In this document: positions 8,451 to 32,663 of the stretch, piece by piece
How the letters are laid out: the number at the start of each line of letters is the position of its first letter
Numbering within the stretch: position 1 is the stretch's first letter
Origin: Candidatus Brocadiaceae bacterium
GTDB lineage: Bacteria; Planctomycetota; Brocadiia; Brocadiales; Bathyanammoxibiaceae
Length of the DNA stretch: 36,280 nt
Direction of reading: 5' to 3'
Assembly: GCA_030018855.1 (NCBI GenBank)
Contig: JASEHG010000001.1
Span: 1 to 36,280 of the forward strand
Made by a program: the position numbers and the translations under genes
The notes under the pieces: generated by a model
What the model was told of the DNA's origin: nothing
The model's database searches: none
What the model saw: the letters and a program-made list of their open reading frames with translations, nothing else

Positions 8451-8461
8451 TATGGAAAATA

Positions 8462-9980: not shown

Positions 9981-9986
9981 ATTTTT

Positions 9987-10059
9987 AGGGGTTAGGGAGT
10001 AGGGGGGAGGGGGTAGAGGGAAAAGATTGCTAATCCCCACTCCCCACTCCCTACCCCCT
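9987..10059. repeat. G-tract arm / C-tract arm hairpin filling the ccsA-resB spacer
   Basis: aggggttagggagtaggggggagggggtagaggg ... tccccactccccactccctaccccct. Confidence 0.85.
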
Positions 10060-11137: not shown

Positions 11138-11294
11138 GATTCAGAGGTCAGAATTCAGTAGTAGATAATGGACTATGGACTATAGACCAGGGACTACGGA
11201 CTAAAGAAAGTCTATAGTCCAAAGTCCAGAGTCTAAAGTCTTTCCGCCTCAGGCGGATTAGTATTCTGAATTCTGACTACTGACTTCTGTATTC
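11138..11294. repeat. Nested heptamer hairpins. Outer arms are GAATTCA/CAGTAGT-type, inner arms are GGACTAY-type, and the palindrome TTCCGCCTCAGGCGGA lies at about 11242-11257.
   Basis: ggactatagac pairs with gtctatagtcc, and gaattcagta with tctgaattctgactac. Read directly. Confidence 0.75.
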
Positions 11295-11335
11295 TTTCCC
11301 TACCCCCTGGTCTCTGACCTTGCCCCTACGGTTCG

Positions 11336-11365: not shown

Positions 11366-11374
11366 ACTTCTGCA

Positions 11375-11493
11375 GGGACTAGGGGTTAGGGATTAAGGGC
11401 TAGGGATAGGGGAAGAAATATAACGCAGGCTAATCTGCCTGAGGCGGACTGCGGCTACCCCTGCCCTCTGGCCCCTAATCCCTGACTCCTGCC
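11375..11493 (+). promoter_or_regulatory. Structured 5' leader. G-tract arm (11375-11412, six G3-4 runs), a central CTGCCTGAGGCGG palindrome, and a complementary C-tract arm (11455-11493) ending 7 nt before the start codon.
   Basis: Read directly. No SD-like sequence lies between the hairpin base and the ATG. Confidence 0.6.
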
Positions 11494-12754: not shown

Positions 12755-12827
12755 GCACTAAGCACGAAACACTGTCTTTGTTGCCTGATTCCTAGTGCGT
12801 AGTTAATAGTGCCTAGTGCATAGTGTT
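12752..12827. repeat. Heptamer-arm hairpin (GCACTAR units) between the two CNNM genes, followed by GTTGTTTT
   Basis: aggcacta (12753-12760) pairs with tagtgcct (12808-12815). The TAG stop of the upstream gene starts the arm. Confidence 0.7.
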
Positions 12828-13804: not shown

Positions 13805-13835
13805 CTAGTAGGGGCACGTTGCAATGTGCCCCTGC
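13805..13835. repeat. Palindromic element CTAGTAGGGGCACGTTGCAATGTGCCCCTGC
   Basis: It matches 29 of 31 nt of the element inside tsaD at 35741-35771. Confidence 0.9.
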
Positions 13836-13860
13836 TTACTTACATTAAAACGCACCAGTT

Positions 13861-13890
13861 GTAGGGACAGGGCTAAAGCCCTATCCCTAC
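13861..13890. repeat. Palindrome GTAGGGACAGGGCTAAAGCCCTATCCCTAC (12 bp stem, one mismatch)
   Basis: Read directly. Confidence 0.85.
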
Positions 13891-13960: not shown

Positions 13961-14497
13961 CTACTCCGTCTTCTTTTTCTTGAATTTATCGTGGCAGTCG
14001 TAGCAGGTACGGGAGACATCGTCGTAGCGGAGTTTTGCCATCTGGATGTCCTTCCTATCCCCTGCCTGGATTAGGAGCATGATGGCCTTACGGAATTGGT
14101 CACCTATGAGGATAAAGTCCGTGGGTACCCCTGCCGGATTCTTTTGGTAGTAGAGGTTCACACAGCGGCCTGCTATAAGGTCTTCTATCTTCCTGGAGGA
14201 GGTGTTGATGGCGTCCCAGTCCTTCTTCTCCACGGCCCTATCCAGCCTCCTCATGTTCAGAGAGGTGGCCGCCATGGCCTCCTGCAGGCCCTTTTCGGTC
14301 TCCAGGGGCATCTCCTCCTTCTCTGCCTCCCACTCCCTCTTGGCCCATTCTTCCAGGGGTGGTAATTCTTCCTTCAGGAATTGCTCCTCTTCCTCCTTCA
14401 TGGTTACCTCTGGTTTCTCCCGCTCACAGCCCACTAGCAGAACAGTAGACAGTAGGCAGTAGACAGTAGACAGTAGAAGGTAGCGTCTTGTTTTCAT
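13961..14497 (-). CDS. Lipoprotein, class II (four-helix-bundle, cytochrome c'/c556-like) c-type cytochrome, paralog 1
   Basis: Signal peptide with lipobox LVGC. A single CxxCH (CYDCH) sits about 10 aa from the C-terminus, the hallmark position for class II cytochromes c. It is a paralog of the upstream gene. Confidence 0.65.
   Translation of the reverse strand: MKTRRYLLLSTVYCLLSTVLLVGCEREKPEVTMKEEEEQFLKEELPPLEEWAKREWEAEKEEMPLETEKGLQEAMAATSLNMRRLDRAVEKKDWDAINTSSRKIEDLIAGRCVNLYYQKNPAGVPTDFILIGDQFRKAIMLLIQAGDRKDIQMAKLRYDDVSRTCYDCHDKFKKKKTE
14443..14477. repeat. Five tandem heptamers (CAGTAGA/CAGTAGG) inside the coding sequence, encoding the signal-peptide core [12 protein letters not shown]
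   Basis: Read directly. The 7-nt period produces a 7-aa peptide period. Confidence 0.9.
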
Positions 14498-14517
14498 ATT
14501 GGCCTCACCCTATTCGC

Positions 14518-14590
14518 AGTAAACAGTATGTAGTAGGTAGTAAGCAGTAGGCAGTTTCTGCTTACTCCCTACTCCTTACTGCCTACTATC
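14518..14590. repeat. Heptamer-arm hairpin (CAGTAGG/GTAAGCA units) between the two cytochrome genes, overlapping the upstream stop codon
   Basis: gtagtaagcagtaggcag - tttc - tgcttactccctactccttactgcctac. Confidence 0.8.
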
Positions 14591-15130
14591 TTTCTCCTTT
14601 CTGTATCTTTGATGGCATCTTTCGCACCCTTCCTGCATCAGTTGGAACTGGCTCCTGGCAAGAGGGGCGTCCTGTTGCCGTTCGGCGAGCAGTAACCTGA
14701 GTACGGCGTCGTTGAATCTCTGACTCATTTGCACAAAGTCCTGGGGCACCTCTCTGTGGGCCTTTACGTAGGAGTTTACGCACCTGCGGCCTATCAGGTC
14801 TTCAAGGCCCTTGGCCGAGTCTCTAGCGGTTGCCCAATTACCGCCCCCAAGGGCGGACTCCAGCCTCTTCATGTGCCTTGAGGCACTGGCCATGACGTCC
14901 TTTAGTTCCTCATAGTCCTCTGCCCCCTGTCGGGAATAGCCCTGCCTCTGTTCCTCCTGGGGACTGGGGGGCCTCTCTCCTTCTTCCATGGTACTGAAGG
15001 CCTTTTTGACCTCTTCTTCGGGAGTGGCCCTGCCGCCTTCTGGTTGTGGCTCCTCCCACCCCCAGCAGGAGGGTAATCCCATGAGGCCCAGGAAGGCCAG
15101 TAATATTATATAGTTAGTCCTCGGCCGCAT
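14576..15130 (-). CDS. Secreted/lipoprotein class II-like c-type cytochrome, paralog 2
   Basis: The ATG at 15130 is preferred over the GTG at 15136. It has a signal peptide and a C-terminal CERCH. It shares the block EDLIxxRCVNxY...VPxDF...CxxCH with paralog 1. Its start overlaps the branching-enzyme stop by 17 nt. Confidence 0.6.
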   Translation of the reverse strand: MRPRTNYIILLAFLGLMGLPSCWGWEEPQPEGGRATPEEEVKKAFSTMEEGERPPSPQEEQRQGYSRQGAEDYEELKDVMASASRHMKRLESALGGGNWATARDSAKGLEDLIGRRCVNSYVKAHREVPQDFVQMSQRFNDAVLRLLLAERQQDAPLARSQFQLMQEGCERCHQRYRKEKDSRQ

Positions 15131-16733
15131 AAACACGGAAATCTATCTCCTGGAAGACGTTGTCCCTGGACTCTATCTCCTCCAACCAGGGGTAATCTAT
15201 GCTGCCAGGGGTGGCCCCGCCACTCTTTATCTGCTGGTAGAGGTAGTTGAATCTGCTGATATGGTCCCTGGTACGTTTTTCTGCGTAAGGGGCCATGGTC
15301 CCTGTGGTCATGATAAAGGCCCAATCGCTGGATTGGGCCAGGAGGAGTTCCCTGGCCGCCTGGTTGAGCATCCTTTCCGTGAGGCCCTCTGCTTCTGAGA
15401 ACTCTCTGGCGAGTTCCAGCATCCTCTCTTCTGCCTTGTGGAGGTGACGGTATATCCAGTCGTTAGAGGCATTGAGCCATACCTCGCTGTAACCCTTGTC
15501 GCCCCAGGTAGAGGCGGAGGGTGTAGAGAGCTGCAGGACGGGGTTTTCCTCCAGGTATTGATTAAGGGTAACGGTGCATATGTCCCTCTGGTCAAAGGCT
15601 ATCTTGCGGAAGAGGAAGTCAAGGAACTCGGGTCCTTCAAACCACCAGTGGCCAAAGAGTTCGGCATCGTACGGGGCCAGGATGACGGGGGGTCTGCCCA
15701 GGTGGTCTCTGAGGGATCTGGCCTGGTGCTGGCGGTTAAACATGAAATTGCCGGCGTGTTCTGCGGCCTTCTCCCTCGCCCTGTATGGGTCGTAGGGCTG
15801 TTTTTCGCCCATGGAGACCGGGCCGGTAATCTTGTGATACTTAATGCCCAGGTTCCGTTTTATACCATCAGGGTGGAGGTAGGGTCGTATGTATTCATAG
15901 TCTGCGTCGTAGCCAAGGTCACGGTAGAACTCCCTGTAATTCCAGTCCCCGGGGTATCCCTCCTTGGCACTCCAGACCTGTTTAGAGGATTCTATGTCCC
16001 TCCCGAAGGCGGCAACGCCGCTGGGGGTTACGATTGGGGCAAAGACGCCGTAAACGGGTCGTGGGGAGGCATGGAGGATGCCGTGGGTGTCCTGTATAAA
16101 ATACTGGATTCCTGCCCGGCACAGTAGGACTTCCGTGCCTGGTGTATAGGCGCACTCCGGGAGCCAGATGCCTCTGGGGGGCCTGCCAAAGTGTTTCTCG
16201 TAGTTCTGGCATCCCACCCTGATTTGGGCCTCCCTGGACTGGTCGGTGGACATCAAGGGGAGAAAGCCGTGGGTGGCGGCACAGGTCATGATTTCCACCC
16301 CCCCAGCATCTTGAAGCCAGCGGAAGGCGTTTATAAGATTCTTCTTGTAAACGTCTTCAAAGAGGTGCCTGGTCTGTCTGAACCTCTCCTGGTAAAGCAG
16401 TGCCGTCTCATAGAAGGGGGTGTTTCTGGTACGGTGCACCTCCCTTTCCATAAGCTCTATACGTTTGTGGACATAGCGTAGACAGCGGTCTTGAAGGAGG
16501 CTGTCGGCCAGCATCTCGCAAAGGGGCGGGCTGAGGGCTATGGTAATCCCGAAGTTTATGCCTCTTTCTGGCCTGCCTGCCTCAAGGAGACCACTGAATA
16601 CCCTGATAAGGGGGATATATGTCTCTACAACGGCCTCGTAGAACCAGTCCTCCTCCAGGAATTCTTCGTGCTCTGGATGACGCACGAAAGGGAGGTGGGC
16701 GTTGAGGACTAAGGCCAGATATCCTGAAACCAT
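15114..16733 (-). CDS. GH57-family 1,4-alpha-glucan branching enzyme (GH57 catalytic domain plus a DUF1957-type C-terminal domain)
   Basis: N-terminus LALVLNAHLPFVRHPE, nucleophile region GIWLPECAY, and acid/base region APYDAELFGHWWFEG. The ATG at 16733 is preferred over the TTG at 16742. Confidence 0.8.
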   Translation of the reverse strand: MVSGYLALVLNAHLPFVRHPEHEEFLEEDWFYEAVVETYIPLIRVFSGLLEAGRPERGINFGITIALSPPLCEMLADSLLQDRCLRYVHKRIELMEREVHRTRNTPFYETALLYQERFRQTRHLFEDVYKKNLINAFRWLQDAGGVEIMTCAATHGFLPLMSTDQSREAQIRVGCQNYEKHFGRPPRGIWLPECAYTPGTEVLLCRAGIQYFIQDTHGILHASPRPVYGVFAPIVTPSGVAAFGRDIESSKQVWSAKEGYPGDWNYREFYRDLGYDADYEYIRPYLHPDGIKRNLGIKYHKITGPVSMGEKQPYDPYRAREKAAEHAGNFMFNRQHQARSLRDHLGRPPVILAPYDAELFGHWWFEGPEFLDFLFRKIAFDQRDICTVTLNQYLEENPVLQLSTPSASTWGDKGYSEVWLNASNDWIYRHLHKAEERMLELAREFSEAEGLTERMLNQAARELLLAQSSDWAFIMTTGTMAPYAEKRTRDHISRFNYLYQQIKSGGATPGSIDYPWLEEIESRDNVFQEIDFRVYAAED

Positions 16734-16734
16734 A

Positions 16735-16785
16735 GGGTTCAAAGGTTTAAAAGTTCAAGGGTTCAAAGTCTCAGGGGTTCAAAGG
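16735..16785. repeat. Tandem 8-9-nt repeats (GGTTCAAAG / GTTTAAAAG type) between the DUF4912 gene and the GH57 branching-enzyme gene
   Basis: Read directly. A complementary version lies at 23829-23862. Confidence 0.75.
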
Positions 16786-16789
16786 CCCC

Positions 16790-17413
16790 TCAGGGCTTAA
16801 AGATATACTCTTTTTTAAGCACCTCAGGGCTGGCCCCATGCCAGTAAGATACGGAGCTGGCAGGCTGGGGTACTATTTCTGGTGTCAGCCCTGGTATGGG
16901 TTCGCCTGAGGTGGGTAATTGTTTGGGCCTGGAAGGGGCCTTGCGGCGTCTTTTCAGGAGTTTTCCCCTGGAGAAATCCTTAAAGAAATGGGCCCATGTC
17001 TGGCTGAGGTCTTCTGCAGGACGGCCCCTCGGCGTCTCTACCTCTCCTGAGTAGACCACAGGGACGAAGGTGCCGTTGGACGCAAAATAACCCAGTTCAA
17101 AGCGGTATCTCCTGGCCGGGGACACCTGGAGATACCAGTTCCTGGCCCAGGCCCGTACTGAGACAGAGGTGGTAGTCCCGTCAGAGAGGCAAAATGCCTT
17201 GAGGGACCAATCCTCCATCTGCCCCGACAATGATCGTGCCTGATGGCCAAGGGGTCCTTCCAATTCCCAGTAGAGGAAGATATAGAAGGGGTCTCTGACC
17301 ATGGCCACCAGCTTGTCGTCTCCATAGTGTTCGGGCAGCTGTGGTCCACGGTCTATGTAGGGCTGTGGTGGGGTAGTCTCAAAGGTGCTGGGGGACTTTT
17401 CCTGAGTTTCCAT
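16790..17413 (-). CDS. DUF4912-type protein (function unknown), recalled as typically adjacent to GH57 branching enzymes
   Basis: The block YGDDKLVAMVRDPFYIFLYWEL matches my recollection of the DUF4912 signature. This needs HMM confirmation. Confidence 0.55.
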   Translation of the reverse strand: METQEKSPSTFETTPPQPYIDRGPQLPEHYGDDKLVAMVRDPFYIFLYWELEGPLGHQARSLSGQMEDWSLKAFCLSDGTTTSVSVRAWARNWYLQVSPARRYRFELGYFASNGTFVPVVYSGEVETPRGRPAEDLSQTWAHFFKDFSRGKLLKRRRKAPSRPKQLPTSGEPIPGLTPEIVPQPASSVSYWHGASPEVLKKEYIFKP

Positions 17414-17422
17414 TGTCTCTTC

Positions 17423-18658
17423 CTAGATAAAGGGCATCTCCTTGGGCACGACCACTATGCCCTTATCGGTAACGGTAAAGTGTCTATGGTCTTCCTCAGG
17501 GTTGTGGCCGATGTGGGTGTTATCCGGGACTATGACGCCTTTGTCAATAATGGCCCTTTTTATACTGACGTTCTTGCCAATCCTGACCCCTTCCAACACT
17601 ACGGAGTCAATTATCTCCGAGCCAATCTCTATCCGCACGTCTGGAGAAAGGACAGAGTGTACTACCATTGCCCCACTAATTATACAACCCGGGGAGACGA
17701 GGCTATCAAGGGCCACCCCCCTCATTTCCCCATTAGACAGTACCGTCTTGACGGGGGGGAATTGTTCCTGGAAGGTACGAATGGGCCAGTCCTTATCATA
17801 AAGGTTAAAAAGGGGGTCAACCGCTAAGAGGTCCATGTTGGCCTCCCAGTAGGCCTCCAGCGTACCAATGTCCCTCCAGTATTTTATGGGTTTTTTGTTC
17901 TCATCCTCAAAGGGGTAGGCGAAGACCTTATCCCTCCCCACCATGGCAGGGATTACGTCCTTTCCAAAGTCGTGGGAGGTGGGTCTTTTGGCATCCTCTA
18001 CTACCCTCCTTACAAGAACCTCTGTATTGAATAGGTAGATGCCCATGGAGGCCAGTATCTTGTTGGGGTCTGAAGGCATTGGCCTGGGCGTCTTAGGTTT
18101 TTCCTGGAAGCCCAGGATACGGTATTGCTCATCCACCTGGAGGACGCCAAAGCGGTGAGCCTCCTCTAAAGGCGCCTCTACGGCGCCTACGGTGAGGTCT
18201 GCCTGTTTTTCCATGTGATAGTGTAACATCTTCCGGTAATCCATTTTGTAAATATGGTCCCCCCCGAGGATGAGTACCTTTTCTGGATGTTCCCTCTCCA
18301 GGGTGTATATGTTCTGGTAGATGGCATCGGCAGTGCCCCTGTACCACTGGTCTGATACCCTCATCTGTGGTGGTATTATCTCTACGTACTCGTCTAGCTG
18401 GCAATTGAAGAGGTTCCACCAGCCCATGCGGATATGGCGGTCCAGGGAGAGAGACTTGTACTGGGTGAGGATTACTACCTTATGGAGACCCGAGTTTAGA
18501 CAATTACTGAGGCTGAAATCAACAATCCTGTAGATACCCCCAAAGGGGACGGCCGGTTTGGCCCTATCTTTGGTGAGGGGATAGAGGCGTTGCCCCTCCC
18601 CTCCTGCCAGTATCATTACCAGTATCCGCTTTAATAGTTCGTTGTTAGTTGCAATCAT
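17423..18658 (-). CDS. glgC: Glucose-1-phosphate adenylyltransferase
   Basis: ILAGGEGQRLYPLTKDRAKPAVPFGG N-terminus, WYRGTADA, and a C-terminal left-handed beta-helix region. Confidence 0.93.
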   Translation of the reverse strand: MIATNNELLKRILVMILAGGEGQRLYPLTKDRAKPAVPFGGIYRIVDFSLSNCLNSGLHKVVILTQYKSLSLDRHIRMGWWNLFNCQLDEYVEIIPPQMRVSDQWYRGTADAIYQNIYTLEREHPEKVLILGGDHIYKMDYRKMLHYHMEKQADLTVGAVEAPLEEAHRFGVLQVDEQYRILGFQEKPKTPRPMPSDPNKILASMGIYLFNTEVLVRRVVEDAKRPTSHDFGKDVIPAMVGRDKVFAYPFEDENKKPIKYWRDIGTLEAYWEANMDLLAVDPLFNLYDKDWPIRTFQEQFPPVKTVLSNGEMRGVALDSLVSPGCIISGAMVVHSVLSPDVRIEIGSEIIDSVVLEGVRIGKNVSIKRAIIDKGVIVPDNTHIGHNPEEDHRHFTVTDKGIVVVPKEMPFI

Positions 18659-18675
18659 TTACGCCTTCTTGAAGA

Positions 18676-18766
18676 CACTGAGTACTAAGCACTATACACT
18701 ATGCACTATGCAGAAATTCCACCTTTTAGTCCCCAGTACATAGTGTCTAGTGCCTAGTGTTTACTG
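18676..18766. repeat. Heptamer-arm hairpin (GCACTAT/GCACTAG units) between the response regulator gene and glgC
   Basis: cactgagtactaagcactatacactatgcactatgcag ... cagtacatagtgtctagtgcctagtgtttactg. The regulator's stop lies in the arm. Confidence 0.75.
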
Positions 18767-19126
18767 TGCCTTTCTTCTCTCCAGGATTTCTTTTATCGCC
18801 TTCTTCAGTTCGGTCAGGTCTGCGGATTTTACTATGTAGGCATCGGCCGACCACGTCATAAAGTTGTCCTTGAAGCTGGAATAGGCGGTGTTGATAACTA
18901 TAGGAATCCTGTTGTTCTCTCCCAGGATCTTCCCCATGGCCTCTATGCCATCCATCCCAGGCATGTTTATGTCCAGTACCAGGAGGTCAGGGGGGTTGAG
19001 CTTTGCCATCGTTACCGCCTCCCTGCCGTCTCTGGCTACTGAGACACTGTAACCTTCCGCAGAGAGTTCATTTCTGTAAAGAAGGGCCTGGTTCTTTTCG
19101 TCTTCCACTACCAGTATGCTTGTCAT
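18761..19126 (-). CDS. Single-domain (receiver-only, CheY-like) response regulator
   Basis: ILVVEDE, the phospho-acceptor context LLVLDINMPGMDG, and no output domain. The start is set at the ATG at 19126, which has SD GAGAGGA. The longer ORF would run into the repeat. Confidence 0.85.
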   Translation of the reverse strand: MTSILVVEDEKNQALLYRNELSAEGYSVSVARDGREAVTMAKLNPPDLLVLDINMPGMDGIEAMGKILGENNRIPIVINTAYSSFKDNFMTWSADAYIVKSADLTELKKAIKEILERRKAQ

Positions 19127-19173
19127 GGTCTTGTCCTCTCTTTGACTTCTGTCGTAAACACAGCCTAACTCTT

Positions 19174-19233
19174 GTAGGGGCAATTCCCGCCTGAGGCGTC
19201 CTCCCGAGGCGGACTTTCAGGATTTTCAACATG
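19174..19233. repeat. Inverted-repeat copy A (60 nt) flanking the histidine kinase gene
   Basis: Its reverse complement is identical to 21631-21693 apart from one 3-nt indel. Confidence 0.95.
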
Positions 19234-19244
19234 AATTGCCCTAG

Positions 19245-21506
19245 CTACTCTGTGATGGGGAGGAGCACTGAGAAGGTACTGCCCCTTCCCTGGACGCTTG
19301 AGACCCTGAGCTTCCCATCATGGTCATCTACAATCTTATGGCTTACCACCAGTCCCACACCGGTCCCAGAGGTCTTGGTGGTGAAGAAGGGGGTGAATAT
19401 CTTTTCTATCACCTCCGGGGCCATACCCTGCCCCGTATCCGAGATATCCGTCCTTATGTACTGTTCTTCCCGAGTAGACTGGACGGTGAGGGTACCACCT
19501 TCTTCCATAGATTCTACCGCATTCTTTATAAGGTTTAGGAGTACCTGTTTTATCTGGGCAGGGTCCAGGAAGGTAGGAGGCAGGCCGGGGGAGAAGTTCT
19601 TTATCAGGTTTATCCCCCTCTCTCTCAGGTATCCCTCCGTTAGACAACAGGTATCTTCCAACAAGGTGTTTATGTCCACACGGACCTTTCTTGGCTCCTG
19701 GGGCTTGCTGAAGTCCTTTATGTTGCCCAATATCTTTTCCAGCCTGCTGACCTCTTCTACTATAATCCTGGCGGCTGTAGCCACGTCCTCCTCTTCTGGT
19801 TTGGTCTTTTCTATACTGCGTGCAAAACCCCCGATGGTCACCAGGGGGTTACGGATCTCGTGGGCAATATAGGTGGATATCTCGCCCATGGCCACGAGTC
19901 GCTCCGAGCGGCAGAGCCTCTCCTGAGTCTCCCTGAGTTGCTCTATCTTTTCTTCCAGGGATTTGTAAGTCTCGGCGTTTTCCATTGCAAGGGCCGCCTG
20001 CCCTGCAAAGATGTTTAGCAGTTGGACGTGGTCCTCAGTGATGGGTTCCCTGCTGTAGGGATTGTCCGCCACTATTACCCCTACGGCCCTCCCTTTTACT
20101 ACAAGGGGGATGCAGACGAATTCCTTAGAGCCAAGGAATTCCCGGAACTCCCTCGTTACCCTAGGGTCAGTAGCCGCCTCTTTTACTACCTGGGAACGCA
20201 TCTCCTTGACGCACCTCACCACTATCTCCTCCTCCTTGTTCAGGGGATAGACCAGTAAACGGGTCTTTACGTTGAGTGGTGAGTCCAGTGGCTCCCTCTC
20301 CATTACCTCCTTGAGGAGTTCTTCCAGGGTGGGGTATCTCTGAGAGACGTCTTGCCATACCCTGGCGGCCTCTTCTCCGCTGGAGGGGCCTACGGCGGCC
20401 TTGCCATAGACTGACCTCTTCTCCTCGTCCACCAGGAACAGGAATGCCCGGTTAAAGGCCAGGGCCTGTCCGGCCGTAACGCTGGTGAGGATGAGGTTGA
20501 GGAGTTTTTCTATGTTAAGCGTCTCGTGGAGGGCCTGCCCCAGTTCCCTGAGGAGGGAGAGTTGCCTGAGCCTCTTTTCCCTCTGTGTGATGTCTCGTGA
20601 GAGGACCAGCACGTGGCCCAACTCCCCCTGCTCGTCCCGGATGGGGATGGCAGTATTCTCAATGTATCGTCTCCTGCCTTCCTTGACCACCGTCTTTATC
20701 TCTCTATAACGGCCCGCGGCACTCTCAAAGGCCCTGGCTACCGGGCAGTAAGCCTCGGCGCATTGAAAGACGTCCTTGCATCTGGCCCCTTTGGGCAGTT
20801 CGGTCAAACCCCATACCTTCGGGAGGTTTGCATTGGCCCAGAGGATGTTCATGCCCCTGTCCATGAGGCAGAGGCCTATCCCGAGTACGTCTACAACGTA
20901 GTCAAGTTTCTCCTTCTCCCGACGTAACTGTTCTTCTGCAAGTCTGGCATTGTTATAAAGATTTTTGTATCTTTCTTCAGAGAGCGTGATCTTCTCAAAG
21001 AGGAGGGTATTCTCCGTTATCATGGCAAGTTGGGGGCATATCTCCTCTAACAGGGGAAATTGGGTCGTAGAGAAATGGTGTGGCTCCATGCTGCTGAAAT
21101 TAATGCTACCTATGACTCTCCCCCTTACCTTCAGGGGATATCCCAGGCGAGACCGTATCCCTGTCTTATAAAAGAGGCCGTTAGTACTGTGGCTACCACT
21201 TTTAGTGTCTTCTACTATGATAGGCTCTCCCGTAAGCAGGATTCGCTCCAGGAGACTCCCCTCCAAGGGGTAGGGCTTCCCCTCCTCAAGGACATTGATA
21301 GTGTTGGTTGCGGAGGCCACAAAGGTAACGGCATGGTTATCCCCCTCCGTGGGAACAGAGATGCTGACCCTGTCAAAGGCCATTACCTTTTTTAATTCAT
21401 TTACGACTGAGACGTAAATGTCTCTTAAATTAAGGCTGGAAGAGATTATTCTCTGTATGTTGGAGATTACTTCTTTTCGTGCGGGATATAATTCTACTAA
21501 TTTCAT
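19245..21506 (-). CDS. Cytoplasmic sensor histidine kinase, GAF - PAS (Cys-rich) - GAF - HisKA - HATPase_c
   Basis: H-box STYIAHEIRNPL, N box LLNLIKNA, G boxes DTGQGM and GTGVGL. No TM segments. Two GAF-like regions flank a PAS-like region. Confidence 0.88.
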   Translation of the reverse strand: MKLVELYPARKEVISNIQRIISSSLNLRDIYVSVVNELKKVMAFDRVSISVPTEGDNHAVTFVASATNTINVLEEGKPYPLEGSLLERILLTGEPIIVEDTKSGSHSTNGLFYKTGIRSRLGYPLKVRGRVIGSINFSSMEPHHFSTTQFPLLEEICPQLAMITENTLLFEKITLSEERYKNLYNNARLAEEQLRREKEKLDYVVDVLGIGLCLMDRGMNILWANANLPKVWGLTELPKGARCKDVFQCAEAYCPVARAFESAAGRYREIKTVVKEGRRRYIENTAIPIRDEQGELGHVLVLSRDITQREKRLRQLSLLRELGQALHETLNIEKLLNLILTSVTAGQALAFNRAFLFLVDEEKRSVYGKAAVGPSSGEEAARVWQDVSQRYPTLEELLKEVMEREPLDSPLNVKTRLLVYPLNKEEEIVVRCVKEMRSQVVKEAATDPRVTREFREFLGSKEFVCIPLVVKGRAVGVIVADNPYSREPITEDHVQLLNIFAGQAALAMENAETYKSLEEKIEQLRETQERLCRSERLVAMGEISTYIAHEIRNPLVTIGGFARSIEKTKPEEEDVATAARIIVEEVSRLEKILGNIKDFSKPQEPRKVRVDINTLLEDTCCLTEGYLRERGINLIKNFSPGLPPTFLDPAQIKQVLLNLIKNAVESMEEGGTLTVQSTREEQYIRTDISDTGQGMAPEVIEKIFTPFFTTKTSGTGVGLVVSHKIVDDHDGKLRVSSVQGRGSTFSVLLPITE

Positions 21507-21562
21507 GGCCAGACCCTTAACCTTACGCTTTTTTTGTAGGGCGGCATTGCCGCCTAAATCAA

Positions 21563-21591
21563 GTATATTTTACTTTGTCCGTTCCTTCAAG
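21563..21591 (-). promoter_or_regulatory. Candidate internal sigma70-type promoter for the kinase gene
   Basis: On the minus strand: TTGAAG, 17 nt, TATACT. It is followed by the hairpin GGCGGCAATGCCGCC and an AAGG-type SD. Confidence 0.4.
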
Positions 21592-21630
21592 CATTTACTT
21601 TTGTGTGTTCGTATAACTGTAGAGGCAATC

Positions 21631-21693
21631 CATGTTGAAAATCCTGTTGAAAGTCCGCCTCGGGAGGACGCCTCAGGCGGGAATTGCCCCTAC
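21631..21693. repeat. Inverted-repeat copy B (63 nt) flanking the histidine kinase gene; overlaps the stop codon of the upstream GH57 gene
   Basis: See copy A. Confidence 0.95.
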
Positions 21694-23816
21694 AGGGCTA
21701 GTTCCTCTACGTCCCCTTTTATACGTAACTCCCATCTATCCCCTGGCCGCATAGAGAGTTGCCACAGTGGGAGGACGGTAGAACCCTGGTACACCTTTTC
21801 AAAGCCCGATTCGCTCTGGGATACGGTCATGAGGGGCATCAGCCATAGTTCAGCCTCCTTGTCCCACCCGAGGGATACCCTCAGGCCTAGGTGCTCGTCC
21901 ACCAGAAAGACCTTTTTCTTTTGGGAAAAACTCTCAGAGATGGCGAGGTGCCCCACTCTGTCCTCGTCGTCCAGTAAGTAGTACCTCCCCTCTGCCTCCC
22001 CTGCCGACATGGAGAGGTTAAATTCTACACCGAAGTTACACACAATCTCCTTTTTAGAGATATTAGCCAGGCTGTAAGCAATGTTCAGGCTGGGAGTCAG
22101 GCCGTCTAAATCCACCTGCTTCCTTATCAATAACGAGTCCCTTTCCCCCTGGATGGTACAATGGCGATAGAGTTTTAAGCTGACCCCATCGGGTCTTTCC
22201 TCAAACCGGCACTGGTAGGGTGCAGTCAAGGAGTCCCCCAGTTGAGTGAGTTTCCCCTGGAGGCAGTCCTCCAGGGCGGCCTGGGGTGGCAAGAGGTGGT
22301 CTATCAGCCCCTCCTTAAGGTAGCCATCGTAGTGGAGCCTCTGCTTGAGTTCCTCTTCTACCTGGGGAATGATGTCATGGATGCTCTTAACGTCTCCTAC
22401 GTGCGTCTGAGGTCTTGCCTCAAGGATCTTTTTGTGATAGGCCTCCTCCCTTCTACTAAGGGTGTTGAGGAGGTTCAGTCCCCTGGGTTTATAGTCCAGC
22501 TCATAGAGGTGTCCCCCCCTATCGGGCTTGAAGTAGGCATTGAGGAGGGGGTTGGTGAGTTTGAACTCCTCATGGGTATCCAGGTCAAAGTCCCTGACCT
22601 CTACGTGGGCCCCCGTGCTGGAGCCGCACAGAGACTCCGCCAGGAGGAGGTGCTGGTACACGGCACTGCGGAGGTGAGGGAGATACAGTCCCCCAAAGAC
22701 ACCGTGCCAGTAGGAGTCGTTACACTGGGCCTGGTAGAGTTCCTTTTGGGCATCCCCCCTGCCCTCCTTTTCTAAAGAGGGGACAGGGGAGATTTCTGTC
22801 ACTTTCTGGCTCACCTCTAGCATCCTGGCATACATTTGATGGGCCTCCGGGTATTTGACCCTGAAGTTTCTCCACGTGCCCCCTTTGAGGAATTGCCTGG
22901 CCACGTGCCCCCAGGGCTGGTTGGCCATAGCCCTGGAGACCTCTTCATACTCCATGAGACCCCTGGATGGCAAGGCCCACTCCATCATCTCCCTGTAGGA
23001 GGCGTCGGGGAGATAGACCCTGCCCCTGTGGGGCAATCTCTCCACTGCCTCTCTGAATGTGGTAGTCCTTATCCAATCCTTATTCCTCCTGAGGGTCTCT
23101 AAGAACTGTTCCAGCCAGCCCTCTTCATATACGTGCTTATAGGTCTTTGGCCAGCTCCCAAACTTCTCCCCGTCATCCGCATATACCAGGAGGGCATTAT
23201 CTCTTTGCTGTGCAAACTGGCGGAGGTATTCTACGGTCTTTTCTGGATGCTCAAACGGGATGCAGTACCTGAGTCGCTCGCTTCCAGGAAAGATTTTTAG
23301 TATCTCACCTTCGTCCTCGGTGAGGAAGTAACCGTCCAGCTCTTTCTCCTCCAGTCCTGCGTGCCTGAAGTGGGAGTCGTCCACCACCGTGTACTCCACC
23401 CCTGCCTCCCTGAGGGAGCTTACCAGGGACTGTTCCCACACCCTCTCTGCCAGCCAGATTCCTTTGGCCTCGGCATCCAGGTGGGTGTTAAGCCACCGGG
23501 TATAAGAGCGTATCTGCCCCAGTCTGTCTCTCTTTGGGAGCATTACCAGGATAGGTTCGTAGAATCCGCCCCCTAGGAGTTCTACCTGTCCCTTCCGTAC
23601 CATGGAATGGATGTACTCAAAGACCCTGGGCTTGTGGGTTTTTATCCACTCAAGTAGTCCGCCCGAATAATGGAGTACCAGGCGTACGTCCGGGTACCTT
23701 TCCATGATTTTAAGGAAGGGTTCGTAGGCCCTGGAGCATACCTCCTCAAAGACCCAGTGGAAGTTGCCGACCGGTTGATGGTTATGCAGGGCAAGGATTA
23801 GGTTTACGCGGTTCAT
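21690..23816 (-). CDS. GH57-family glycoside hydrolase no.2 (4-alpha-glucanotransferase / alpha-amylase-like architecture with DUF1925/DUF1926-type C-terminal domains)
   Basis: N-terminus LILALHNHQPVGNF, nucleophile region GIWLAERVWE, and acid/base region YADDGEKFG. Confidence 0.8.
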   Translation of the reverse strand: MNRVNLILALHNHQPVGNFHWVFEEVCSRAYEPFLKIMERYPDVRLVLHYSGGLLEWIKTHKPRVFEYIHSMVRKGQVELLGGGFYEPILVMLPKRDRLGQIRSYTRWLNTHLDAEAKGIWLAERVWEQSLVSSLREAGVEYTVVDDSHFRHAGLEEKELDGYFLTEDEGEILKIFPGSERLRYCIPFEHPEKTVEYLRQFAQQRDNALLVYADDGEKFGSWPKTYKHVYEEGWLEQFLETLRRNKDWIRTTTFREAVERLPHRGRVYLPDASYREMMEWALPSRGLMEYEEVSRAMANQPWGHVARQFLKGGTWRNFRVKYPEAHQMYARMLEVSQKVTEISPVPSLEKEGRGDAQKELYQAQCNDSYWHGVFGGLYLPHLRSAVYQHLLLAESLCGSSTGAHVEVRDFDLDTHEEFKLTNPLLNAYFKPDRGGHLYELDYKPRGLNLLNTLSRREEAYHKKILEARPQTHVGDVKSIHDIIPQVEEELKQRLHYDGYLKEGLIDHLLPPQAALEDCLQGKLTQLGDSLTAPYQCRFEERPDGVSLKLYRHCTIQGERDSLLIRKQVDLDGLTPSLNIAYSLANISKKEIVCNFGVEFNLSMSAGEAEGRYYLLDDEDRVGHLAISESFSQKKKVFLVDEHLGLRVSLGWDKEAELWLMPLMTVSQSESGFEKVYQGSTVLPLWQLSMRPGDRWELRIKGDVEELAL

Positions 23817-23828
23817 CTGGTGGCCTTC

Positions 23829-23862
23829 CTTAAACTCTTAAACTTTTGAACCTTTAAACTCT
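23829..23862. repeat. TTAAACTC/TTGAACC repeat tract, complementary to the tract at 16735-16785
   Basis: The reverse complement ggttcaaaagtttaagagtttaag matches 21 of 24 nt of ggttcaaaggtttaaaagttcaag. Confidence 0.65.
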
Positions 23863-25299
23863 TTTTCTTTGGTAAAGCTCAACGTACTCTCTTGCACTCT
23901 TATCCCAGGACCAGTCCTGGAGCATACCCCGCCTCACGAGTTCGGTCCACTGGGTGGTGTTGCGGTAGGCCTCCAGTGCCCGCTTGATTGTACTAATCAT
24001 TTCCGAGGTATTACTGGAGTCAAAGGTGAACCCTACTTGCTCGTCCACCGTATCCACCAGTCCCCCCGTTCGCCTTACGATGGGTACCGTACCATATTTG
24101 AGGCTGTAAAGCTGGTTGAGGCCGCAGGGCTCAAATTTAGAAGGCATGAGGAACATGTCTGAGCCGGCCTCTATCTCGTGGGAGAGGCGGTTATCAAAGC
24201 CAATGTTTATTGATGCCTTTCCTGGATACCTGGAGACCCTGGACTTCAGGGCCTCTTCGTAAGGCTGGTCTCCCTTCCCCAGGAGGACTAGCTCCAGGTC
24301 TAGTCCCATTAGCTCCTCCCACCCTTCCAGGAGCAGGTCCACCCCTTTCTGTTCAGCCAACCTCCCTATCCATCCTATTACCGGTACGTCCTCCCTCTCT
24401 TTGAGTCCGCACTTCTTCTGGAGGTGTCTCTTGCAGGCCCTTTTCCCCTTCAGGTTTTTAGGGCTGTATCTGGAGGGGATGAGTTTGTCCTTGTCTGGAT
24501 TCCAGGTGTTGTAGTCCACGCCGTTTACTATCCCGAAGAGGTCTTTGGAACGCTCCTGGAGGACGCCATCCAGGCCGCGGCCGAACTCCTGGCTCTGTAT
24601 CTCCTGGGCGTAGCGTCTGCTTACGGTAGTAATAAGGTCAGAGAAGACCAGTCCTGCCTTGAGGACGTTTAGCTTCCCATGGTACTCCAACTGCTTCCAG
24701 TTAAAGTAACTCCAGTCCAGTCCTGTCAGGGGCATATCCTCTTTAGGGAATAGACCCTGGTAGGCTAGGTTGTGGACGGTGAAGACCGTAAGGGTATTGC
24801 GGAAGGAGGCGTCTCCCTGGTAGATGGTCTTCAAATAGGCCGGGGCCAGGGCGGACTGCCAGTCATTGGCGTGGAGGACGTCGGGGGTCAGGCCCAGGGC
24901 CTTAATGGTCTCCAGTACCGCCTTGGAGAAGAATGCAAACCTCTCGCAGTTATCCTTGTAGTCAAGCCCCGTGGCGGGGTCTTTGTAAGGCTCAGCCCTT
25001 TCAAAGTACTCTGCGTTTTCAATAAAGTACACTGGTATACGCGTGTCGGGCATATAGGAGGAATAGACAAGCCCGATAGAGGTCTTGTTGGGCATGGGTA
25101 CGGCGATGGTAATCTTGGTAGGAGACAGGGAGAATTCCTTGCGGTTGACCTGTTTGTAGAGGGGCATAAAGAGGCAGACCTTGTGGCCCAGTTTTGCTAC
25201 ACTCTTGGGTAGTGCGCCCAGGACGTCTCCCAACCCGCCGGTCCTTGCAAATGGGTCTATCTCTGGGGATATATAGACGATATTGAGCTTCTGACTCAT
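23854..25299 (-). CDS. glgA: Glycogen synthase (ADP-glucose-type, GT5)
   Basis: N-terminus SPEIDPFARTGGLGDV, and the C-terminal block PSKFEPCGLNQLYSLKYGTVPIVRRTGGLVDTV. Confidence 0.95.
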   Translation of the reverse strand: MSQKLNIVYISPEIDPFARTGGLGDVLGALPKSVAKLGHKVCLFMPLYKQVNRKEFSLSPTKITIAVPMPNKTSIGLVYSSYMPDTRIPVYFIENAEYFERAEPYKDPATGLDYKDNCERFAFFSKAVLETIKALGLTPDVLHANDWQSALAPAYLKTIYQGDASFRNTLTVFTVHNLAYQGLFPKEDMPLTGLDWSYFNWKQLEYHGKLNVLKAGLVFSDLITTVSRRYAQEIQSQEFGRGLDGVLQERSKDLFGIVNGVDYNTWNPDKDKLIPSRYSPKNLKGKRACKRHLQKKCGLKEREDVPVIGWIGRLAEQKGVDLLLEGWEELMGLDLELVLLGKGDQPYEEALKSRVSRYPGKASINIGFDNRLSHEIEAGSDMFLMPSKFEPCGLNQLYSLKYGTVPIVRRTGGLVDTVDEQVGFTFDSSNTSEMISTIKRALEAYRNTTQWTELVRRGMLQDWSWDKSAREYVELYQRKRV

Positions 25300-25318
25300 A
25301 TTTTAAGTTCCTCCAAAA

Positions 25319-25383
25319 CCAGCAGTAGATAGTAAGCAGAAGGCACTGCTTTCTGCTTACTTCTTACTCCTTACTGCCTACTG
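25319..25383. repeat. Heptamer-arm hairpin (GTAAGCA/CAGTAGA units) between the GalT-like gene and glgA
   Basis: 10-bp perfect core: gtaagcagaa (25332-25341) pairs with ttctgcttac (25351-25360). Confidence 0.8.
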
Positions 25384-26388
25384 TTTTTTAGTTGGTTTTA
25401 CCTGTCTAAGATATTCTGCCGCATTCTCTGGGGGCACGGGGTTGATGTAGAATCCAGTACCCCACTCAAAACCTGCCACCCTGGTGAGTCTGGGGATTAT
25501 CTCTATGTGCCAGTGGTAATAATCCAGTTCCGGGTGGTCAAAGGGACTGGTGTGGATGATGAAGTTGTAGGGGGGTTGCTCAAGACTGCCTTCCAGCTTG
25601 GCCAGGGCAGTCCACAGGGTCTCTGCCAGTTCTTCTACCTCAAACTTCTGGATGTTCTCAAAATGGGAAGAATGGTTCTTGGGTAGTATCCACAGTTCAA
25701 AAGGGAACCTGGAGGCATAGGGGGTAAAGGTGCAGAAGTAGGTGCCGTCTAATACTATTCGGCTGGCCGTAGATATCTCCTGTCTCATCATGTCGCAGAA
25801 GAGGCATCTTCCCCTGTACTTGTAGAAGGCGAGACTGCCTTCCATTTCCGTGGCTACCACGAGGGGGACAATAGGGGTAACGATGAGCTGGGTATGGGTA
25901 TGCTCAAGGCTGGCCCCGGCCGTGGCCCCCACGTTCTTGAAGAGCATACCGTATATCATCCTCTTGTCCTTCTTCAGGTCAACCAACCTGTCCCTGTAGG
26001 TCCAGATTACCTCCTGGATGTAGCGAGGTTCCAGGTCTGTGAGGGAGATGACGTGCTGGGGGCATTCTATTATTACCTCGTGGGCGCCTATACCGTTCAT
26101 AAGGTCATAAATGCCGTCTCCGCGCTTGCTGAGTTCGCCTTCTATCTTGAGGGCGGGGAATTTGTTTGGCACCACCCTTACCCTCCATCCCCTGGAATTA
26201 GGGCTGCTTCCGCGCTCCCTGTAGGCCATAATCTCTGGCGGGGTCTTGTCCTCGTTCCCCGCGCAGAAGGGGCAGAAGTTACCCTTTATAGCGGAAGGGG
26301 CGGTGATAAAATCAGAGGGCCTGAGGGCCCTTTCTGTGGCAATGATTACCCATCTCCCAGATACGGGTTCTTTTCTTAGTTCAGGCAT
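25378..26388 (-). CDS. GalT-family (HIT superfamily branch III) hexose-1-phosphate nucleotidyltransferase/phosphorylase
   Basis: CPFCAGNE Zn motif and the HxHxQ active site (EHTHTQ). The start is set at the ATG at 26388, preceded by AAGGAG. The TTG-extended ORF runs into the repeat. Confidence 0.8.
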
Positions 26389-26402
26389 AGAGTCTCCTTT
26401 TT

Positions 26403-26467
26403 CAGTAGACGGCAAACAGTAGACAGCATACAGGGATAGTGATACCCCTGTCTACTGTCTACTGTCT
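26403..26467. repeat. Heptamer-arm hairpin (CAGTAGA units) between GH57 no.3 and the GalT-like gene
   Basis: acagtagacag (26416-26426) pairs with ctgtctactgt (26448-26458). Confidence 0.8.
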
Positions 26468-26474
26468 CCTTGCC

Positions 26475-28637
26475 TCACACCTGCCAGAATATCCTCTCAA
26501 AGTCCCTGGTAGGGGTGGTGAAGGCGAAGGGAAAGTGGTCTGGCAGTCTCTCCGTTACCTGTCCCTCCCGCTCTATCTCTACCAGAAATTCGGCATTTTC
26601 TCCAGGGGAAAGGCCAAGCTCCTGGAAGGGGCATCTGAGTTCCAGCACCTCTACGGCCGCTACTGCCTCCGGTACTATCCTAGGGGTGGTTTCACCTTTC
26701 TTGATGACTTCCAGGCCCTTTATGGGCTGTGGTGCTCCGGTCACCTGGAGCCTGACCTCTGCGGGGAGGAGGAAGATTACGGCCAGGCGGTCGCGTGTTG
26801 AGAAACGACTCAGGGCCCCTTCTTCAAAGTCTAGCCGTAGGAAGAAGTTCTCTTCATCAAAGCCAAAATACACCCCTCTAATAATCCCCCCGGAGGCCCT
26901 GTGCATTACCGGGGTATCTCTGGAGGCCCTGTAATAACCCGCCGCCACCCACTCAAAGAAACTGCTCACGCGTCCATCCAGCCGCACCTTTAGGAAACCT
27001 TTGGGTGTGGTGTAGGGTCTCTTCTTGCCGAGTTGGATTATGGGGAGGTCAAGTGACCTGGGGCTTTCGGATGCGCTAAATTTATATACGTTCTTCAGGT
27101 GGGTGCGGAAGAGTCTGTCAAAGACTTCGTCGTAGGCCGAGGAGTGGTCGTCCCCGTACCACCAGTACCAGTCACTCCCCTCACTGATGTATATGCACTC
27201 CTGGGCCAGTTCCTTATGGTTCACGCCCAGGTCCGGCCGCTTCTTCAAGAAGTCCCTGGTCTCCGCCACGTACTCCCAGGCCCGGTTCTTTTCTGCGTGG
27301 CCTACCCACGTGGCCAGGTTATGGTTTATCCACGAACCGGCGTAAAGGTCTCGCAAGGTATCCTGGGGGGGATGCCTCTCCAGGTAGTCGCTCACCCTCG
27401 TCGTCTCAATCCCTCTTTGTCGGGAAATCCCCCTGTAGAGTTCTCTCAGAAAGTCTAGCCCATTATGAGGATAGAACTCCCATGCGTTCTCTCCATCCAG
27501 GATTACGCTTACAAGGAGGGGCCGCTCGCCCCTGCCCGGCGCAATCCTCCCTAGAAAGTCTTCTACTGCGGCATGAGGGCTGTACCTCTGGTACTCAAAA
27601 CCGATGAGGTCAGAGAGGCGGTGGTCACGGAAGATTATCTGGGTCTGAGCCCCCTCGTATTCCAGGCGGTAGGGTTTATACAGGGTCTGGGGTTGATTCA
27701 CCCGCCCCTGGTGGTCACGGCCAAAGGTGGTATGTAGCGTCCTGGCCAGGATGTCTTCATCCGAGGCCATCCACTTGAGGCCGGCCCCGTTCAGGATGGG
27801 TACGAGATGCGGACTGACGGCCCCCTCCGAGGGCCAGAGGCCCTTTGGTCTACGGCCGAAGAACCTCTCATGGGTCTCCACCGCCTTCTGCACCTGGGCG
27901 ACCGCATCCTCTCCGGCCTCCAGCCTCCTCCGGGGCAGGGGGAGTTGCGGCAGGGCCTGCTGGGCCGTCCTGGGTTCGCAGAGGAGGGGGAGGATGGCAT
28001 GGTAGAAGGGGCTGGTGGTGGTCTCTGTCTGCCCGGAGGCCTCCAGTCCTCTGTGCAACTTTATTATCCTGTCTATGACCTCAGTCTGTTTAGCCAGTAC
28101 CATCCGCTTTTCTTCCTGTGAGAAGCCATGGCCCTTTTGGAAGAGGGACTGGAGGTCTCTATCTCCCTCTACCACCAGGGGGTGGAACCAGGTGAGGTTG
28201 GCCCATACCTGGAGGTCTCTGAGGTCTCTGTGGCTAAAGTCTCTTATTGCACTATCTGCGGTCTTTTTCCCGAAGGCCCGTTTCCTGAGGAGTTCCCTGT
28301 AGCGGGGATACGGCTCTATCATCCGTTCCCAGTTGGCAGAGAAGAAGTTGTCTATAAGGAAGAGGGCGTCCTTTTCCAGCAGTTCACTGGGTTCCAATTC
28401 ACTGAGTTTCTGGAACTTGTCCCTGGCCTTCCCCTGGGCATACTCCTCCAGTTGGACGAGCAGGCACGGAACGAAATTGAAATTCTGCCGGATTTCTGGA
28501 AATTCCTTCAGTATAAGCCCCATGCCTATGTAGTCCTTAATGGCATGGAACCTCACCCAGGGCAGGAGGTACTCCCCCGTACTGAGGTCCTTATAAAAAG
28601 GCTGGTGAAAGTGCCAGAGAAAGGCGATGTATATCAT
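26475..28637 (-). CDS. GH57-family glycoside hydrolase no.3 (720 aa, specificity unknown)
   Basis: N-terminus FLWHFHQPFY, nucleophile region GLWPSEGAVS, and acid/base region ILDGENAWEF. Confidence 0.8.
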   Translation of the reverse strand: MIYIAFLWHFHQPFYKDLSTGEYLLPWVRFHAIKDYIGMGLILKEFPEIRQNFNFVPCLLVQLEEYAQGKARDKFQKLSELEPSELLEKDALFLIDNFFSANWERMIEPYPRYRELLRKRAFGKKTADSAIRDFSHRDLRDLQVWANLTWFHPLVVEGDRDLQSLFQKGHGFSQEEKRMVLAKQTEVIDRIIKLHRGLEASGQTETTTSPFYHAILPLLCEPRTAQQALPQLPLPRRRLEAGEDAVAQVQKAVETHERFFGRRPKGLWPSEGAVSPHLVPILNGAGLKWMASDEDILARTLHTTFGRDHQGRVNQPQTLYKPYRLEYEGAQTQIIFRDHRLSDLIGFEYQRYSPHAAVEDFLGRIAPGRGERPLLVSVILDGENAWEFYPHNGLDFLRELYRGISRQRGIETTRVSDYLERHPPQDTLRDLYAGSWINHNLATWVGHAEKNRAWEYVAETRDFLKKRPDLGVNHKELAQECIYISEGSDWYWWYGDDHSSAYDEVFDRLFRTHLKNVYKFSASESPRSLDLPIIQLGKKRPYTTPKGFLKVRLDGRVSSFFEWVAAGYYRASRDTPVMHRASGGIIRGVYFGFDEENFFLRLDFEEGALSRFSTRDRLAVIFLLPAEVRLQVTGAPQPIKGLEVIKKGETTPRIVPEAVAAVEVLELRCPFQELGLSPGENAEFLVEIEREGQVTERLPDHFPFAFTTPTRDFERIFWQV

Positions 28638-28660
28638 AATTACGTAGCCAGTCCAGTAGC

Positions 28661-28684
28661 GTAGTCGCAGGCTTTAGCCTGCGG
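28661..28684. repeat. Palindrome GTAGTCGCAGGCTTTAGCCTGCGG (CGCAGGC family copy 2)
   Basis: It matches 3147-3170 and 32619-32642. Confidence 0.9.
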
Positions 28685-28685
28685 A

Positions 28686-28796: not shown

Positions 28797-28901
28797 GAGA
28801 ATTGGTCAACTGCCTGCCTTAGGTGGGTTAGCAATCGGAAGACCAAAGACTGATAACTGAAGACTGACAACCGAAAACCGTTCTAAAAGGAGCCCGGTTA
28901 C

Positions 28902-30628: not shown

Positions 30629-30686
30629 GTCAGCAGTCAGTAGTCAGCAAGATTATTGATAGCTGATTACTGACAGCTGACTACTG
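30629..30686. repeat. Heptamer-arm hairpin (GTCAGYA units) filling the spacer between the PpiD-like gene and ribF
   Basis: 11-bp perfect core: cagtagtcagc (30637-30647) pairs with gctgactactg (30676-30686). The ribF ATG is 3 nt downstream. Confidence 0.85.
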
Positions 30687-30689
30687 AAA

Positions 30690-32642: not shown

Positions 32643-32663
32643 AAACTCTAGGAAGATAATACG

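Follow-up and report, generated by a model that had tools for sequence, protein, structure and literature searches.

Two members of a dispersed GTAG-palindrome family very probably form the inverted repeat around a histidine kinase gene in an anammox glycogen cluster

Why should one sensor histidine kinase gene inside a glycogen gene cluster be bracketed by a long inverted repeat? The locus lies on the metagenomic contig JASEHG010000001.1 (assembly GCA_030018855.1, Candidatus Brocadiaceae bacterium), which we analysed over its whole length of 36,280 nt and refer to as the window. A preliminary description of this DNA had offered three readings of the repeat: an RNase III processing stalk in RNA, a recombinational switch that inverts the kinase gene, or two copies of a short mobile-type element that landed in opposite orientation by chance. 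Our analysis favours the last of these. The arms are very probably two members of a repetitive extragenic palindromic (REP)-type family, residing in two spacers that are hot spots for repeats, each next to the stop codon with which the preceding gene ends; as a bracket around the kinase they are most likely incidental, serving neither as a switch nor as a processing signal.

The inverted repeat itself is real and non-random. Its arms, at 19173-19219 and 21648-21694, are complementary over all 47 nt (100%), and past a 3-nt indel (TTG on the + strand, at approximately 21645-21647) the complementarity resumes between 19218-19240 and 21624-21646, where 22 of 23 positions match (96%); the near-perfect repeat with a single 3-nt indel that was first described is thereby confirmed. 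The window contains exactly two occurrences of a 42-nt core of the repeat, and 100 dinucleotide-preserving shuffles gave no match. Gene order also bears out the placement of the repeat within the glycogen operon, around the kinase and no other gene; the enclosed segment comprises the kinase open reading frame (ORF), as stated before, together with 112 nt upstream of it rather than the approximately 125 nt originally given.

Each arm is a complete hairpin element, approximately 75 nt long and closed by a terminal stem of its own, GTAGGGGCAATTC...GAATTGCCCCTAC. The downstream element, here element L (75 nt, 19174-19248, + strand), occupies the spacer between the kinase and response-regulator genes with its head (GTAGGGGCAATTC) pointing leftward; the upstream element, element R (75 nt, 21619-21693, - strand), is inverted relative to it, with its head pointing rightward, and is distinguished by 3 nt inserted in this copy alone and, at its tail, by a variant stem (GGATTGCCTCTAC). 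In both copies a terminal stem of 13-14 bp (GTAGGGGCAATTC paired with GAATTGCC(C/T)CTAC) encloses an inner hairpin (CCGCC...GGCGG) and an unpaired tract, and the local folds of the single copies have energies of -30.4 and -35.9 kcal/mol. The inner hairpin had been recognised in the preliminary description and is indeed present, while the terminal stem had gone unnoticed, as had the relation of the elements to the neighbouring stop codons: the TAG stop of the upstream GH57 gene (21690-21692) falls in the head GTAG of element R, and the TAG stop of the kinase gene (19245-19247) falls in the tail GTAG/CTAC of element L. We rejected an intrinsic-terminator role for either copy, because no T-run follows the hairpins and a terminator scan was empty there, and likewise rejected an integron attC-like or CRISPR-like origin on sequence, there being no array and no R'/R'' motifs. 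An Rfam scan, at the gathering threshold for the whole window and at E<=1 for 18900-21900, returned only tRNA-Phe, with nothing at the repeats.

Both elements belong to a family with a simple modular architecture. Its base form is a 28-nt perfect palindrome, GTAGGGGCAATT-CATG-AATTGCCCCTAC, with stems of 12-14 bp (as in relatives' loci L026 and L040, and in the window at 35032-35059), and a 22-25-nt module (CCGCCTGAGGCGGATTTTCAAC-like) may be absent from its loop or be present there once or twice. Alignment resolved three length classes, 28, 50 and 72/75 nt, separated by steps of 22-25 nt; elements L and R are both of the long, two-module form, and the additional 22-25-nt block that sets them apart from the 50-nt form resembles the 22-nt interior copied in tandem and then diverged. 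The terminal GTAG is found in every aligned copy that keeps its stem, save for two long forms with degenerate heads (AGGAG and TGCAAG), and one aligned copy (L037) lacks a stem altogether. The window contains three family members in all, the third being a degenerate 28-nt short form (GTAGAGGCAATTCATGAATCGCCCCGAC; 35032-35059, + strand) at the end of an S41 peptidase gene, where it overlaps the start region of TsaD.

The family is widely dispersed. An 18-mer from the head of the element, GTAGGGGCAATTCCCGCC, scanned against 185,579 species-representative genomes, gave 25 loci, of which 14 lie, all with different flanks, in three related planctomycete metagenome-assembled genomes (MAGs), RIFCSPHIGHO2_12_FULL_52_36, Brocadiales SMAG_U8304 and NC_groundwater_1467. 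Thirteen of these 14 are the 50-nt element GTAGGGGCAATTCCCGCCTGAGGCGGATTTTCAACATGAATTGCCCCTAC, identical or differing at 1-4 bases, and the fourteenth (L020) has another interior. Loci L004 and L018, from the first two of these MAGs, share 92-95% nucleotide identity with the window over several kilobases. A 24-mer specific to the long form recovered 7 metagenome contigs representing three further unrelated sites, one of them without terminal stems. Contigs from four related metagenomes, of groundwater and soil, had a word depth over the element 5-8 times that of its flanks in 117-nt bins; over the core it was approximately 10-20 times, with many loose ends leading into different flanks, and further contigs held still other module combinations. 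The three further sites and the depth of the core indicate that the long form is a dispersed subfamily and not private to the kinase locus. The element is thus one of a multi-copy family seen at many unrelated sites in related genomes.

The relatives in question belong to lineages such as Ca. Tripitaka and Hypogeohydataceae, aquifer anammox bacteria with genomes of 2.0-3.2 Mb (bioRxiv 10.1101/2023.04.27.538623). The same outer stem (GTAGGGGCAATT / AATTGCCCCTAC) and the same inner stem (CCCGCC / GGCGGG), with other loops, also occur further afield, at loci L002, L010, L014, L016 and L022, which come from MAGs of Omnitrophota, Kuenenbacteria of the candidate phyla radiation (CPR), TA06, Bacteroidetes and another member of the Planctomycetia; this suggests that the repeat type, and perhaps a mobilising enzyme too, may be common to several phyla in groundwater communities.

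How do the two sites look in relatives? The order GH57, kinase, response regulator, GlgC is kept, with its orientation, in L004 (approximately 95% nucleotide identity to the window), in L026, L027, L028 and L029/L030 (kinase identities of 95%, 94%, 88% and 82%), in L038 (73%) and in L039 (59%), where there is a 4-nt overlap between the kinase and regulator genes. In the Ca. Brocadia locus L040 the kinase is 52% identical and the pair sits in a reduced cluster, its kinase gene starting 3 nt after GlgA. The synteny comparison that had been proposed therefore finds the order and orientation of kinase and regulator conserved but the spacers not. Tight or overlapping spacers in the distant relatives (L039 and L040) point to an ancestral compact operon, with the spacers of the Tripitaka group secondary and the repeat elements late additions.

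Occupancy of both spacers varies among close relatives. The upstream site, between the GH57 stop and the kinase start, is occupied in L004 and L028 by the 50-nt form, placed identically, in L026 and L027 by another GTAG palindrome (GTAGGGGCACGTTGCAACGTGCCCCTAC), in L029 by (GCGGAAT)n heptamers and, on a contig of sequencing run X13, by a long form that has no 3-nt insertion. The downstream site, between the kinase stop and the regulator start, holds the 28-nt palindrome in L026 and in contigs of runs X32 and X33 and unrelated sequence in L028 and L029; it is empty in L027 and in the main haplotype of runs X1 and X2, with the joint GAGTAG/GGC(C/T)GT, which in X1/X2 runs from 19165 to 19245 and skips 79 nt. 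The 8 nt that follow the downstream element, AA(A/G)AGTT(C/A), are common to the window and L026 copies, and this shared tail suggests that the long copy of the window and the short copy of L026 derive from one ancestral insertion, which was expanded in place in the window. Mutually complementary long elements at both sites were found in none of the sampled relatives. In L026 (1-565, Ca. Tripitaka californicus) we also observed that the GH57 glucanotransferase gene has its 3' part called in two pieces, of 125 and 58 aa, the second of which reads through a GTAGGGGCAC... palindrome; this reflects either a frameshift or assembly error, or a C-terminus remodelled by the repeat.

Judged by these sequence features, the closest known kind of element is the superfamily of GTAG-tagged REPs. 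REP units are stem-loops of approximately 20-40 nt with stems of 6-13 bp; the 28-nt base form is comparable, and elements L and R are enlarged versions that retain its terminal stem. GTAG-tagged REPs are known from Planctomycetes; most of them lie downstream of an ORF, the TAG stop of which they often provide, and strains differ in them (PMC3733652); REPs, including REP dimers, bacterial interspersed mosaic elements (BIMEs) and REPINs, are mobilised by REP-associated tyrosine transposases, or RAYTs (PMC3733652; PMC2817692; PMC3479197). The family described here shares with them a short, G+C-rich palindrome starting with GTAG, many dispersed copies in intergenic spacers with several families per genome, positions directly 3' of ORFs where the TAG of the tag is the stop codon, loops of variable length with self-complementary inner parts, and presence or absence that differs between close relatives. 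It departs from classical REPs, whose tag is unpaired at one end, in being doubly tagged (GTAG paired with CTAC) and fully palindromic, from GTAG REPs in having a loop that grows by tandem modules of 22-25 nt to a length of 75 nt, and from REP dimers, whose members lie 1-100 bp apart, in that the two copies stand 2.4 kb apart around a gene. The GTAG palindromes are new either as a family or as a length variant of this known kind of repeat, and the preliminary description's proposal of two REP-like or MITE-like copies (MITE, a miniature transposable element with inverted repeats) in opposite orientation by chance agrees both with their dispersed, multi-copy nature and with the varying occupancy of the two sites.

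A comparison with MITEs is less close. Correia repeat enclosed elements, the MITEs of Neisseria, are likewise approximately 70-150 nt long with terminal inverted repeats, lie beside genes with which they are co-transcribed, form hairpins that are potential RNase III substrates, and may bring or abut promoters (PMC2649163). They have, however, terminal repeats of 26 nt, a TA target duplication and an IHF site, as against terminal stems of 13-14 bp here, and in our locus RNase III action would need the pairing of two separate copies. Comparing the filled sites of L026 and the window with the empty sites of L027 and X1/X2, we found no flanking direct repeat of the kind that a target-site duplication would leave.

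How, then, might the two long copies have come to face each other? On this account both spacers flanking the kinase already contained family members, a 50-nt form after the GH57 stop and a 28-nt form after the kinase stop, and both sites in the source strain now hold the two-module form, which may have been acquired in place. One route would be gene conversion or template switching from another long copy, with the 13-bp terminal stems serving as homology; another would have a REP-associated transposase re-mobilise or replace the element. A 28-nt recipient that is a perfect palindrome would accept an interior in either orientation, and the downstream interior would have ended up inverted relative to the upstream copy. 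Installation in place and in arbitrary orientation would make the long-range inverted repeat a by-product and not a selected device. The 47-nt identical tract spans the head through the modules, and the tails differ (by one indel and the variant stem); this pattern, at adjacent sites in a genome that appears to have only approximately 10-20 long copies, favours a recent local exchange. The effect of each copy is most likely local, on mRNA, and typical of REPs: a stable hairpin placed at the stop codon of the upstream gene, whose TAG it even provides. By analogy with REP biology (PMC3733652), such a hairpin may buffer or protect the 3' end of the upstream message, or may dampen termination or translation at the stop codon.

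Several points weigh against this explanation. A motif scan (HUH plus Y..NP) of the ORFs in 316 kb of locus sequence gave no REP-associated tyrosine transposase candidate. The GTAG is base-paired with the CTAC at the far end where the classical REP tag is unpaired, and the long form measures 72-75 nt against 20-40 nt for typical REPs. Random placement would not be expected to put two of so few long copies per genome into adjacent spacers, which calls for a local process, such as conversion between neighbours, or for selection. Finally, our assessments of inversion and of RNA processing rest on related populations and not on reads of the source strain: among public runs the best word share with that strain was 0.30-0.33, which corresponds to relatives of approximately 95% identity only.

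The alternatives draw in part on the content of the bracketed segment, which contains a promoter-like motif, TTGAAG-17-TATACT (21590-21562, - strand), between element R and the kinase start. This motif, noted in the preliminary description, is indeed present and is kept in L004, L026, L027, L028 and L029, and as TTGCAG-17-TATACT in L038, unlike the spacer around it, which is not conserved. Its retention suggests that the kinase and regulator have a promoter of their own, and the pair is probably transcribed from this conserved promoter downstream of element R.

If glycogen transcripts instead read through the locus, the two arms could pair over approximately 70 bp, and RNase III could then separate the kinase message from that of the metabolic genes and reset the stoichiometry, as the first of the earlier readings proposed. 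Such a duplex, of 47 plus 23 bp where 20 bp or more would be expected of a processing stalk, is physically possible: the co-fold of the two arms has an energy of -152.9 kcal/mol, against -66.3 kcal/mol for the two local folds together, and 70 positions of element R pair with element L in the minimum-energy fold of the 2.6-kb read-through RNA. Read-through is plausible, since the interval from the GH57 gene to the kinase has no intrinsic terminator, and repeat hairpins can be RNase III substrates elsewhere, the Correia elements being one example (PMC2649163). The resemblance to the RNase III stalks of 16S and 23S rRNA, in which long-range complementarity flanks a transcribed segment of 2-3 kb, is nevertheless one of geometry only, because rRNA stalks are conserved with their gene, whereas the pairing here is specific to one strain, is made of a mobile, dispersed repeat and encloses a translated mRNA with its own promoter. 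The absence of complementary elements at both sites in any sampled relative leaves the stalk without conservation; each arm would also fold on itself once transcribed, its partner emerging 2.4 kb later on a translated message, and transcripts starting at the promoter-like motif would contain only element L. RNA contigs of related populations were sparse, with a depth of 1-5 and no ends, the genes being expressed at a low level. We consider a processing stalk very unlikely.

The second of the earlier readings, in which recombination between the arms inverts the kinase and its promoter and so uncouples the kinase from the response regulator and glgC, fares worse and seems to us extremely improbable. 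Perfect inverted identity over 47 nt (near-perfect over 70 nt) is enough for occasional RecA-dependent inversion, and inverted repeats bracketing a segment with its own promoter-like motif recall invertible segments of the Hin/Gin/Fim type and invertons. Again the likeness is geometric only: known switches have a dedicated site-specific recombinase nearby, repeats that are specific to the switch and not dispersed, and both orientations in populations, none of which was seen here. Pfam annotation of 30 ORFs spread over the window revealed only housekeeping and metabolic genes, and nothing that would encode an invertase, resolvase or integrase; collinearity holds for all nine related loci; dispersed elements of an ordinary kind make up the repeats; and contigs of eight DNA runs contained no strand-changing joints, although this test is insensitive, being made on consensus contigs from related populations without the exact strain. 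Alternatively, an assembler may have threaded a long interior from another copy into the downstream site, whose true content would be the 28-nt form. The window is a whole metagenomic contig, filled junctions at the element L site appear in no public run, and the short form occupies this site in relatives. Both flanks are collinear with relatives, however, the tail stem of element L (GAATTGCCCTAGCTAC) is specific to its site and distinct from other long-form copies, and assembly at the usual k>=21 requires that the reads contained junction words such as CTAGGGCAATTCATGTTGAAAA, so that an artefact of this kind appears very unlikely. There is, lastly, a small chance that in the source strain two long repeats opposed by chance have created, in read-through transcripts, a new 70-bp double-stranded RNA stalk where RNase III would excise the kinase message from the glycogen operon RNA, or a recombination-prone invertible cassette; if so, dispersed REP-like repeats would have been caught generating a new long-range RNA processing site or a promoter-carrying invertible cassette.

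The genes around the two elements form a cluster that Pfam annotation resolves into three GH57 enzymes, GlgA, GlgC, a GalT-like gene and DUF4912. All lie on the - strand, in the order of transcription GH57 (26475-28637), GalT-like (25378-26415), GlgA (23854-25299), a GH57 alpha-amylase/4-alpha-glucanotransferase directly upstream of the kinase (21690-23816), the 753-aa kinase (19245-21506; GAF-PAS-GAF-HisKA-HATPase_c), a stand-alone receiver-domain response regulator (18761-19126), GlgC (17423-18658), DUF4912 (16790-17413) and a GH57 branching enzyme (15114-16742). The ORF start listed for the response regulator, 19183, falls inside element L, and translation probably begins at the ATG of position 19126; in all relatives an orthologue of 121-123 aa is annotated directly 3' of the kinase. 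An exact-protein look-up of the kinase returned no record; its orthologues, reached by homology search, are named Candidatus Tripitaka californicus, Ca. Tripitaka sp. YC43 and Hypogeohydataceae. We rejected the idea that the kinase is a horizontally acquired cassette bounded by the repeats, since composition is uniform and synteny holds down to 52% identity. Compared with orthologues of 855-857 aa (73-88% identity), the 753-aa kinase found in the window and in the Ca. Tripitaka MAGs is missing a PAS module of approximately 102 aa, which in the longer proteins comes after the N-terminal GAF domain and before the following PAS domain; N-terminus and remainder align throughout. The GAF-PAS kinase and stand-alone receiver are conserved residents of the glycogen cluster (15114-28637 in the window; L038, L039 and L040) from Ca. 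Tripitaka to Ca. Brocadia, and in the distant relatives the pair is tightly or translationally coupled to its neighbours.

Other repeats abound in the window. It contains 18 GTAG...CTAC palindromes, against 0.6 in shuffles. Besides the family described above, at least four other families of such palindromes occur, for example GTAGGGGCACGTTGCAACGTGCCCCTAC, GTAGGGGCTGAATATTTTCAGCCCCTAC, GTAGCCGCAGGCTTTAGCCTGCGG and GTAGGGCGGCATTGCCGCC, at 1825-1852, 13861-13890, 13808-13836, 35744-35771, 3147-3200, 28656-28685, 32614-32643 and 21536-21554. The last of these sites is a small GTAG-tagged hairpin (GTAGGGCGGCATTGCCGCC, + strand) in the 5' leader of the kinase, which is present in L004, L026 and L027 and absent from L028. 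Nearly every spacer of the window also holds a period-7 tandem array with a site-specific unit, such as ACAGTAG, ACTAGGC, TAGGGGG or ATGGACT (518-555, 2826-2878, 8455-8493, 9986-10051, 11168-11295, 11374-11407, 12793-12825, 14442-14587, 18684-18759, 25345-25383, 26403-26467, 28842-28878 and 30629-30687); orthologous sites of relatives hold other heptamers, such as the (GCGGAAT)n and (TAGACTA)n found around the kinase in L029. We take these arrays to resemble the short tandemly repeated repetitive (STRR) heptamers of cyanobacteria. Distinct from the heptamers are two period-8 tandem repeats, six copies of GGTTCAAA and four of CTTAAACT, located at 16736-16785, before the DUF4912 gene, and at 23829-23863, in the GlgA/GH57 spacer.

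The bracket around the kinase is thus explained by ordinary repeat biology, which removes a false lead; it need not be pursued as a switch. What the locus documents instead is a modular family of GTAG palindromes (28, 50 and 72/75 nt) in aquifer anammox bacteria, whose orthologous sites reveal length forms swapped in place and so offer useful natural data on how REP-type elements spread and are homogenised. The kinase, for its part, belongs with its receiver to an ancient and conserved part of the Brocadiales glycogen gene cluster, and the pair is a candidate regulator of glycogen storage or metabolism in anammox bacteria.

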